Positions 6,802 to 8,296 of a DNA stretch of 8,296 nt are shown here, piece after piece; positions within the stretch are counted from its first letter, which is position 1; every line of letters starts with the position of its first letter. The notes beneath the pieces were generated by a model, which saw only the letters and a list, made by a program, of their open reading frames with translations, was not told where the DNA came from and searched no databases. The stretch lies in IMG/VR virus record IMGVR_UViG_2534681674_000012, one strand, 5' to 3'. Made by a program: the position numbers and the translations under genes. Source of the DNA: a virus. Lineage: Duplodnaviria; Heunggongvirae; Uroviricota; Caudoviricetes.

Positions 6802-7425
6802 CTAACGTGTGATCGCATTCAAAATGTTGTCTGCGATTGACTCTTCCTTGTGGCATTGCACAACCAGAGCGTCATACAGCGGCTTAACAGTGCGTGACCA
6901 GGTGGGTTGGGTAAGGTTTGGGATTAGCATCGTCACAGCGCGATATGCGGCGCTTGCTGGCATTCTTGAATAACCGACGCCTTTACATCTTCCGCACTCT
7001 TTCTCAGCAACTATCCCCCACTGCTCTGTTTTGGCTATATCAACCGCACGGCCTGTACCGTGGCAATCTCTGCATCTTGCGCCCGGCGTAGCGGCACTAC
7101 GGCAATAATCCGCATAAGCGAATGTTGCGAGCACTTGCAGTACCTTTGCCTTAGTATTTCCTTCAAGCTTTGCCACGCCACGGTATTTCCCCGATACCTT
7201 GTGTGCAAATTGCATCAGATAGTTGATAGCCTTTTGTTTGTCGTTCTGGCTGAGTTCGTGCTTACCACAGAATACAGCCATTCCGAATCCGGCTTGTGAT
7301 TGCGCCATCCCCATAGCAGCCATCACATCAGTACCGGAAAGAGAGTCAGAAGCCGTGGCCCGTGGTGAGTCGCTCATCATCGGGCTTTTTGGCGAATGAA
7401 ATTTAGCTACGCTTTCGAGTCTCAT
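6802..7425 (-). CDS. Q: Late-gene antitermination protein Q (lambdoid Q family, QuuD-like)
   Basis: 207 aa with the Q-type zinc-binding motif [12 protein letters not shown]…[10 protein letters not shown]-terminus [27 protein letters not shown]… resembles DLP12-type Q as recalled. GGGAGAAGG lies upstream of the ATG at 7423-7425. Followed by the pR'-like promoter. Confidence 0.9.
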
Positions 7426-7488
7426 GCGCCTTCTCCCTGTACCTGAATCAATGTGAGGTTTCCGCAGAACACTGCGCCAGTATCGATA

Positions 7489-8296
7489 TGAACCGCCCCG
7501 GGTTTCCTGGAGAGTATTTTATCTGTGAACTCAGGCTGCCAGATCATTATTTCCGATGGAAGCATAATAAGCTTTTTCTGCTTCTGCCGGAGGAATATGG
7601 CCCAGCCTTTCCAGCAATCGTCGATTGTTATACCAGTCCACCCACGTTAGTGTGGCCAGTTCCACTTCTGTCCGGTTTTTCCAGCTATTACGGTGTATTA
7701 CCTCCGCTTTGTAAAGACCATTGATGCTCTCAGCCATCGCGTTGTCATACGAGTCGCCAGTACTCCCTGTTGATGCCAGTAATCCGGCTTCCTTAAGCCG
7801 CTGCGTGTAGGCCAGCGATACATACTGAGAACCTTTATCACTGTGATGGACTGTGCCGGACGGCCGACGGGCCCACAACGCCTGCTCCAGTGCATCCAGC
7901 ACGAATGTCGTTTCCATAGACGATGAGACTCGCCACCCCACGATACATCCGGCAAACACATCAATGATGAACGCCACATAGACGAAGCCCTGCCATGTGC
8001 TGACGTAAGTAAAATCAGCCATCCACAGCTGGTCTGGACGTTCTGCCACGAACTGACGGTTTACGCGGTCGCATGCGGCAACGGCTTTCCGGCTGACGGT
8101 AGTGCGGACCTTTTTACCCCGGAGAACACCGGCAAGTCCCATAACTGCCATGAGACGTGCCACAGTGCATCTGGCCACTCTGATACTTCCCGTAACAACT
8201 GGCGCCAGACTTTATGCACACCGTATACCTGGTGATTTTCATCGTATACGCGCTGTATCTCTTTCTTCAGCCAGTCATCGTGCTGCGCACGGGCAC
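7489..8296 (-). mobile_element. IS3-family insertion sequence (IS629-like suspected), partial; its terminus lies 63 bp upstream of the Q start codon
   Basis: Element terminus TGAACCGCCCCGGGTTTCCTGGAGAG begins at 7489 (IS3-family ends start with TG…). The minus-strand transposase orfB reading frames cover 7531 to the window edge. The element continues beyond 8296. Confidence 0.75.
7531..8296 (-). pseudogene. IS3-family transposase OrfB (DDE integrase domain) with an apparent 1-bp frameshift near 8186
   Basis: Frame A (from the window edge): ARAQHDDWLKKEIQRVYDENHQVYGVHKVWRQLLRE… Frame B (7531..8178): …ARCTVARLMAVMGLAGVLRGKK… with DDE residues (WMADFTYV, HHSDKGSQY, YDNAMAES). The two frames join if one G is restored in CGGGAA(G)GTATC, giving …LLREGIRVARC…. 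Confidence 0.65.

Follow-up and report, generated by a model that had tools for sequence, protein, structure and literature searches.

An IS629-type insertion directly upstream of Q in a decayed lambdoid prophage of Escherichia coli 97.0246

Does the insertion sequence (IS) found directly upstream of a lambda-type antiterminator gene Q cut this gene off from the early promoters of its prophage, and is the transposase of this IS, which appears with a broken reading frame, in fact defective? Both questions are raised by the window considered here, which is the whole draft contig AEZJ02000003.1 of E. coli 97.0246 (assembly GCA_000194215.2) with a length of 8,296 bp. In this strain the IS resides in a lambdoid prophage that is heavily decayed.

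The interrupted gene and the insertion sequence

The Q gene, its upstream neighborhood and the visible part of the IS comprise the following features of the window:

6802-7425, minus strand: lambda-type antiterminator gene Q, intact, 207 codons (Pfam Antiterm, E=4e-58)
7426-7488, minus strand: remnant of a NinI-like Ser/Thr protein phosphatase gene, last 21 codons (identity to the 3' ends of the genes in loci L003 and L004)
7489-8296, minus strand: IS629/IS1203-type element of the IS3 family, right-hand 808 bp with the inverted repeat IRR and about two thirds of orfB (nucleotide and profile matches)
7489-7513, no strand assigned: terminal inverted repeat IRR, TGAACCGCCCCGGGTTTCCTGGAGA (ends of full copies in L007, L013 and L002)
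7531-8178, minus strand: downstream part of orfB as a separate ORF of 215 codons with the whole DDE/rve core (WMADFTY, HHSDKGSQY, DNAMAESING; Pfam and ORF list)

Residues 1-207 of Q align to residues 1-207 of chain Q in PDB 7ubm with five substitutions (E=3.7e-136), and together with the Pfam Antiterm match this amounts to similarity to lambda Q over the full length. The ATG of Q occupies 7425-7423 on the minus strand, leaving a gap of 63 bp (7426-7488) between the IS and the gene. These 63 bp are identical to the 3' end of the 666-bp phosphatase genes annotated in two related prophages (L003 and L004), and the TGA stop of the phosphatase remnant overlaps the ATG of Q; the match of this tail to the profile NF008516 is weak. 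The identity places the IS within the 3' end of a ninI-like phosphatase gene and not in an intergenic spacer. As the phosphatase gene is unbroken in the related prophages, the IS cuts Q off from the nin region.

The IS ends at 7489 with TGAACCGCC.... Both L003 and L004 equal the window up to ...CAGTATCGATA(T) and diverge from it exactly at 7489/7490, where the window continues with TGAACCGCCCCGGG; the T at 7489 can be assigned either to the target or to the IS. The 13-mer present in the window at this point is the outermost sequence of at least eight copies with unrelated flanks, each of them 1308-1310 bp long and closing with an inverted ...GGCGGTTCA, and the flanks of unrelated copies diverge exactly at the edge of the IRR. 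If the IRR is compared with the opposite end of full copies, 22 out of 25 positions match. Imperfect terminal inverted repeats of the form 5'-TG...CA-3' are present, the IRR in the window itself and the matching IRL as read from full copies of relatives. The transposase is transcribed towards Q, and the IS is cut off by the end of the contig; its full length in relatives is 1310 bp.

With regard to the family, the Pfam domain rve was found in the IS with E=2.5e-26, and rve_2 and rve_3 also matched. The NCBIfam profile NF033516 (IS3 family transposase) scored 239 bits in the 215-codon ORF against a cutoff of 160, and the D, D and E motifs of the catalytic DDE (rve) domain that characterizes the family can be read in the 215-aa product. 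Transposase genes of the IS3 family match 7489-8296 in 4380 out of 5426 complete E. coli genomes, and the IS occurs at 20-40 places per related genome. The best match, a copy from O111:H11, is 98.8% identical to the IS of the window; positions 7851-8296 are 99.1% identical to the copy in L016, and a copy labelled IS1203 shows 94.3% identity. These values, together with the length of about 1310 bp, were set against the expectation of at least about 95% identity to named IS629/IS1203 copies and agree with it, the comparison being made to copies so named and not directly to ISfinder or type sequences.

The name IS629 is taken from product names in RefSeq and GenBank and from the literature rather than from ISfinder entries. 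Close copies are called “IS3 family transposase” or “IS3-like element IS1203 family transposase” in RefSeq, and members of the protein cluster at 90% identity are named IS629 OrfB or IS629 family transposase. IS1203, IS1203v and IS3411 are isoforms of IS629, the subtypes of which differ by 4-5% (PMC3271280), and the 94-99% nucleotide identity of our element to annotated copies lies within this published spread. The terminal sequence TGAACCGCCCCGG..., the DDE/rve core and the location in a prophage are likewise typical of IS629. The element is assigned to the IS629/IS1203 group of the IS3 family by these matches.

An earlier sequence-only reading of this DNA had described an IS3-family element 63 bp upstream of Q, with TGAACCGCC as its terminus, that separates Q from the nin region. 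This is in agreement with the rve, NF033516 and nucleotide matches, with the divergence from L003 and L004 at 7489/7490 and the position of the Q start codon at 7425, and with the intact phosphatase gene in these two loci.

The same junction in relatives and the lost early region

The junction between ...CAGTATCGATA and TGAACCGCC (GATA/TGAACCGCC, the stroke marking the edge of the IS) is also found in two other E. coli assemblies, GCA_026134195.1 (L007) and CP027597.1 (L013; NZ_CP027597.1, used without annotation). Both relatives share the junction and the initial 362 bp of the IS with the window without a difference, and their downstream prophage remnant shows 0-21 differences over 8.3 kb. 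Their IS is intact, 1310 bp long and of a single subtype. It encodes an orfA of 108 aa and an orfB of 295 aa, or a 404-aa fusion, with an annotated programmed frameshift and an AL1L pseudoknot, in likeness to IS629.

The far end of the IS in L007 abuts GATCACCGACG..., on the argU/integrase-remnant side and near a second, inverted IS and fimZ; in L013 it abuts other DNA, after an inversion. The remnant adjoins fimZ in the closest relatives, L005 and L007, and argU is annotated there in L001. The sequence-only reading had pointed to the far end, outside the window, as the place to look for a target-site duplication. None was seen in the two same-junction copies, which read GATA/IS/GATC... (L007) and GATA/IS/GGAT... 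(L013), the agreement of GATA with GATC at three out of four positions being compatible with chance. Where a duplication of 3-4 bp is expected for the IS3 family, other copies do show one of 3 bp, namely ACC (L002), ATG (L163) and TCA (L162). The missing duplication is compatible with a rearrangement or an adjacent deletion that followed the insertion, and is no argument against the IS3 family.

As a duplication is missing and the far end in L007 lies on the argU/integrase-remnant side, we infer an insertion together with the loss of the whole early region rather than a simple insertion. For E. coli 97.0246 this is extrapolated from relatives that are 100% identical to the window over 7.5-7.85 kb.

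The course of events is explained as follows. An IS of the IS629/IS1203 type, belonging to the copy-out/paste-in class with a DDE transposase produced via a programmed -1 frameshift, inserted into the terminal 63 bp of the ninI-like phosphatase gene, directly upstream of the lambda-type Q. The early region from int to ninI, including pL/pR, N, cI, the replication genes and the nin region, would have been lost by an IS-associated deletion or by recombination between IS copies. The authors consider this explanation as a whole, with an IS629-type insertion, the loss of the early region and an uncoupled Q in a decayed remnant, to be quite likely correct.

The Q-side junction (window 7485-7489) is polymorphic among strains that are nearly identical. 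In strain 2013C-4974 (L001) an IS of another subtype stands 4 bp closer to Q, i.e. at -59 (GTATC/IS, L001 4056-4061), and L005 has no IS at this junction (GTATC/ACCGACG, L005 16694-16700). Such variation points to a single spot at which insertion, excision or recombination has taken place more than once. The IS sequence past 7850 differs from that of the copies in the relatives, and the locus in E. coli 97.0246 may have been rearranged differently, L013 with its IS-IS inversion being one example.

At a further joint, located at 4127-4128, a 5' piece of Rz runs directly into the 3' end of the gene for the terminase large subunit. Both L013 and 2013C-4974 (L001) carry an IS629 exactly at 4127/4128, additional to the one upstream of Q in L013, followed by four more native Rz bases (CTGC). 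Neither the IS629 nor the CTGC is present in the window, in L005 or in L007. The joint looks like an IS629 excision scar of the IEE class “IS plus 1-7 flanking bp” (PMC9330008). Adjacent deletions and excisions associated with IS629 have been reported, and the variants of the Q-side junction as well as the IS-free joint fit the excision and deletion classes described there (PMC9330008).

The insertion is an ordinary event of a kind known for IS629, and the same insertion is already contained in public assemblies. IS629 is enriched in prophages and diversifies them (PMC3271280, PMC4587872). In O157, 62% of its copies are located in prophages or prophage-like elements (PMC3271280), and it is one of the main reasons why lambdoid prophages that are otherwise identical come to differ; its insertions in early or late phage genes (roi, lysozyme, methyltransferase) change prophage competence (PMC4587872). 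Compared to the lambdoid (Stx) prophages of EHEC, the host of the IS is here a small non-Stx remnant that carries espK. The locus is a compact example of how IS629 remodels EHEC/EPEC-type prophages: the element inserts, adjacent DNA is deleted, IS copies recombine with each other, and excision leaves scars. Each of these processes has been described before.

The frame break in orfB

The frame break and the part of orfB upstream of it are located as follows:

8186-8187, no strand assigned: 1-bp deletion, one C of CC on the plus strand and one G of GG on the coding strand (alignments)
8061-8296, minus strand: upstream part of orfB in the original frame (...HKVWRQLLRE), followed by 41 out-of-frame codons and a stop at 8061 (translation)

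In an alignment with 12 other copies, a C of GATACCTTCCC is missing from the window alone. The gap falls between plus-strand positions 8186 and 8187 and corresponds to one G of GGGAAGGTATC on the coding strand; the deletion allele reads GATACTTCCC where the undeleted allele reads GATACCTTCCC. The deletion falls at approximately codon 78 of the 295 codons of orfB. The segment 8061-8296 covers positions 128-162 of the NF033516 profile and the segment 7531-8178 covers positions 167-369. If the base is restored, orfB is open across the whole window (...VWRQLLREGIRVARCTVARLMAV...NNDLAA, then the stop codon).

The programmed -1 frameshift of the IS3 family as the cause of the break is ruled out by its position: the frameshift site lies approximately 50-170 nt past the end of the window, and the AL1L pseudoknot annotated in a reference copy starts 50 nt past the equivalent of 8296. 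An Rfam scan of the whole window returned no family, as is to be expected with the pseudoknot beyond 8296.

The frame break near 8186 with one missing G had been proposed from the letters, and the alignment confirms it, as no reference copy shares the frame arrangement of the window. The same reading had taken the break to suggest that the copy cannot transpose on its own. The break precedes the entire DDE domain, and the deletion, if real, would truncate the OrfAB transposase ahead of this domain; such a copy would be non-autonomous and at best be moved in trans by intact copies, of which the genome is expected to contain many. An inability to transpose depends, however, on the deletion being biological, and the copies at the same junction in the relatives are intact.

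The occurrence of the deletion elsewhere was counted with the undeleted sequence as a control. An exact 42-mer with the deletion is absent from the 5426 complete E. coli genomes, a 29-mer that includes it has no match in either the species-representative genomes or the metagenome contigs, and none of the approximately 155 copies in the fetched loci has the deletion allele. The undeleted 30-mer gave 23 matches in the species-representative genomes, at least 120 in the metagenome contigs and 155 in the fetched loci. With no occurrence in three collections that have such positive controls, a shared allele is ruled out.

The deletion lies in a stretch that is unusual in further respects. Over positions 1-7850 the window has no difference from L007, and 7489-7850 are thus identical to its same-junction copy; from 7851 to 8296 the sequence follows the subtype of L016, the efa1-adjacent IS copy of strain 2013C-4974. 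The subtype crossover inside the IS is located between 7816 and 7851, and could represent natural recombination between IS copies or an assembler walking into another copy. Four differences from the L016 subtype are private to the window and fall between 8022 and 8215, namely 8022 C>T, the 1-bp deletion, 8202 A>G and 8215 C>T. Three of the four (8022, 8215 and the deletion) were checked for their occurrence elsewhere, and in this context no other copy has them, neither among the approximately 155 fetched copies nor at more than 30,000 places in the 5426 genomes; 8022T is found in three genomes on another IS background. In comparison to IS629 the copy of the window is therefore set apart by being visible over 808 bp only, by its two-subtype mosaic and by a private 1-bp deletion with substitutions.

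A real insertion in which the deletion and the other private differences of the last 275 bp are draft-assembly errors, with an intact and autonomous copy in the cell, comes only slightly short of an even chance. The contig stops 808 bp into a multi-copy IS, and the deletion is situated within its last 111 bp, in the subtype-switched stretch with the three other private differences and after 7850 positions free of any difference from L007. Oddities clustered in this way, in a repeat and close to where the contig ends, speak for an artefact. So do the intact reading frames of the same-junction copies (404-aa fusion or 108 plus 295 aa), the private nature of the deletion, 8022 and 8215 alleles, and the 215-aa product, which was found on this single contig among 15 billion proteins. 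On the other hand, the consensus of a collapsed repeat should yield majority alleles and not novel ones, and two of the private changes are transitions and not indels. The contig is clean over its final 81 bp and shows no private differences at its opposite end. Defective copies of the IS629 type do exist, for example the copy of strain DX6 that is annotated as frameshifted, and recombination between IS copies is evident at this locus. Weighing both sides, we regard a biological deletion and an error at the end of a draft contig as about equally probable. If a draft contig ends in a multi-copy IS, a frameshift within its last approximately 100 bases calls for a look at the reads before a pseudogene is scored.

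Expression of Q and the rest of the remnant

Downstream of Q lies an ORF that might be transcribed under its control:

5806-6564, minus strand: hydrophobic membrane (cargo) ORF of 247-252 codons between Q/pR' and holin (ORF list)

To look for sigma-70 promoters and terminators, positions 6500-8296 were scanned by a crude consensus match, one that misses a lambda-pR'-like promoter downstream of Q. On the minus strand this consensus scan found no sigma-70-like promoter between 7531 and 7425 and no terminator-like site between orfB and Q. Its sole promoter-like match in 6500-8296 is located at 6569-6540, at the start of the cargo ORF, and its four terminator-like matches are not clearly above chance (mean of 1.5 in shuffled sequences, sd 1.1). 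An outward -35 at the tip of the IRR combined with a -10 in the 63-bp remnant was sought by eye, with TTCATA as the best candidate and no -10. As there is no promoter-like or terminator-like site on the Q strand from orfB to Q, a transcript of Q would need read-through. We infer that Q, uncoupled from pR and N, would be transcribable only by read-through from the weak transposase promoter of the IS or from outside.

At 6731-6759 on the minus strand, downstream of Q, TTGACT is followed after 17 nt by GAAACT and then by TTGACACCAATAATGGG. This may correspond to pR'/qut of lambda, which it resembles (TTGACT-17-TAAATT and then TTGACTCAACGATGGG). The site was not called by the consensus scan.

In an unlikely alternative the IS does not silence Q but activates it, by read-through from the transposase promoter or through a hybrid promoter with an outward -35 in the IRR, resulting in constitutive low-level Q. 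By way of pR', this Q would drive expression of the retained cargo ORF together with the holin and endolysin genes, which would then act as a domesticated module. The transposase points in the direction of Q, that strand has no terminator-like site between the two, the ORFs for Q, the P21-type holin and the RrrD-like lysozyme are all intact, independent insertions of the IS629 type beside Q in two other strains have the same orientation, and other IS3-family elements have an outward -35 in the IRR that is able to form fusion promoters (PMC9330008). However, no -35/-10 pair meeting the scan criteria or recognizable by eye spans the IRR and the 63-bp remnant, and three or four co-oriented cases are not significant. 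An IS adjoins this flank upstream of Q in only 4 out of 5426 complete genomes, which gives no sign of selection.

Independent insertions of the IS629 type next to Q or nin genes occur in three unrelated strains. In OkiPb01684 (L163 2508-3817) the IS is located 28 bp upstream of the same type of Q with ATG as target duplication, 35 bp from the site in the window, and reads as a simple insertion of the same IS type. In DX6 (L162 2502-3809) the 5' end of another type of Q is hit, with TCA as duplication, and in E105 (L161 3448-4757) the IS lies in ninG with an adjacent deletion that reaches the xis/int side. The IRR faces Q in all three. The positions relative to Q are -63 and -59 in the lineage of the window and -28 in OkiPb01684.

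It is improbable that copies of the IS629 type repeatedly land just before lambdoid Q genes with the transposase towards Q, be it due to a target preference at the ninI-Q junction or to selection for uncoupling Q from pR with an IS-driven trickle of late-gene expression. If true, an insertion of IS629 close to Q would represent a route to prophage domestication. The co-orientation in three or four independent cases near Q is too few to carry meaning, and a population-level hot spot of insertion was rejected, as only 4 out of 5426 complete genomes have this IS type within approximately 900 bp of the flank upstream of Q.

There is next to no chance that the TGAACCGCC boundary is a fortuitous similarity or a recombination joint between phage modules instead of an IS end, as thousands of 1310-bp elements, bounded by the same inverted repeats in unrelated flanks, share 95-99% identity with the 808 bp, one such element shows a 3-bp target duplication 35 bp away in another strain, and the shared inverted repeats and the exact flank divergence refute a non-IS boundary at 7489.

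A chimeric ORF of 47 codons (7422-7565, minus strand) starts inside the IS in a frame other than that of orfB and crosses the IRR into the last 21 codons of the phosphatase. Its stop overlaps the ATG of Q (ATGA), and translational coupling into Q could in principle occur. The Q gene has a Shine-Dalgarno-like sequence of its own, GGGAGAAGG.

Returning to the preferred explanation, with Q uncoupled in a decayed prophage, the remainder of the window contains the following features:

3919-4152, minus strand: C-terminal piece of terminase
3716-3922, minus strand: gpW
2862-3719, minus strand: lambda-type tape-measure protein, C-terminal 285 codons
2603-2893, minus strand: C-terminal domain of a tail fibre
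787-2148, plus strand: ORF for the type III secretion effector EspK, 453 codons (NF011913 over the full length, 918.8 bits, just below the cutoff of 934)

The late region is truncated, with Rz cut at 4127 and the structural genes in fragments, which argues for a non-inducible remnant in which the insertion probably has little phenotypic effect. As part of a dead prophage remnant, the Q gene would be separated from its early promoters, and holin, endolysin and cargo genes should therefore not be read as an inducible lysis module.

In the region 2603-4152 on the minus strand, fragments of late genes follow one another head to tail, an arrangement for which several internal deletions must have occurred. 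A tRNA scan of the window gave no hit. The cargo ORF at 5806-6564 occupies the position of the stx genes in Stx phages and is followed in relatives by a DUF3927 ORF; the Pfam scan assigned no family to it, and precomputed matches list PF27470 (TfpB). The espK gene is located at the far end of the remnant beside the tail-fibre fragments, and in the public assembly collection 1742 blocks list the exact EspK protein.
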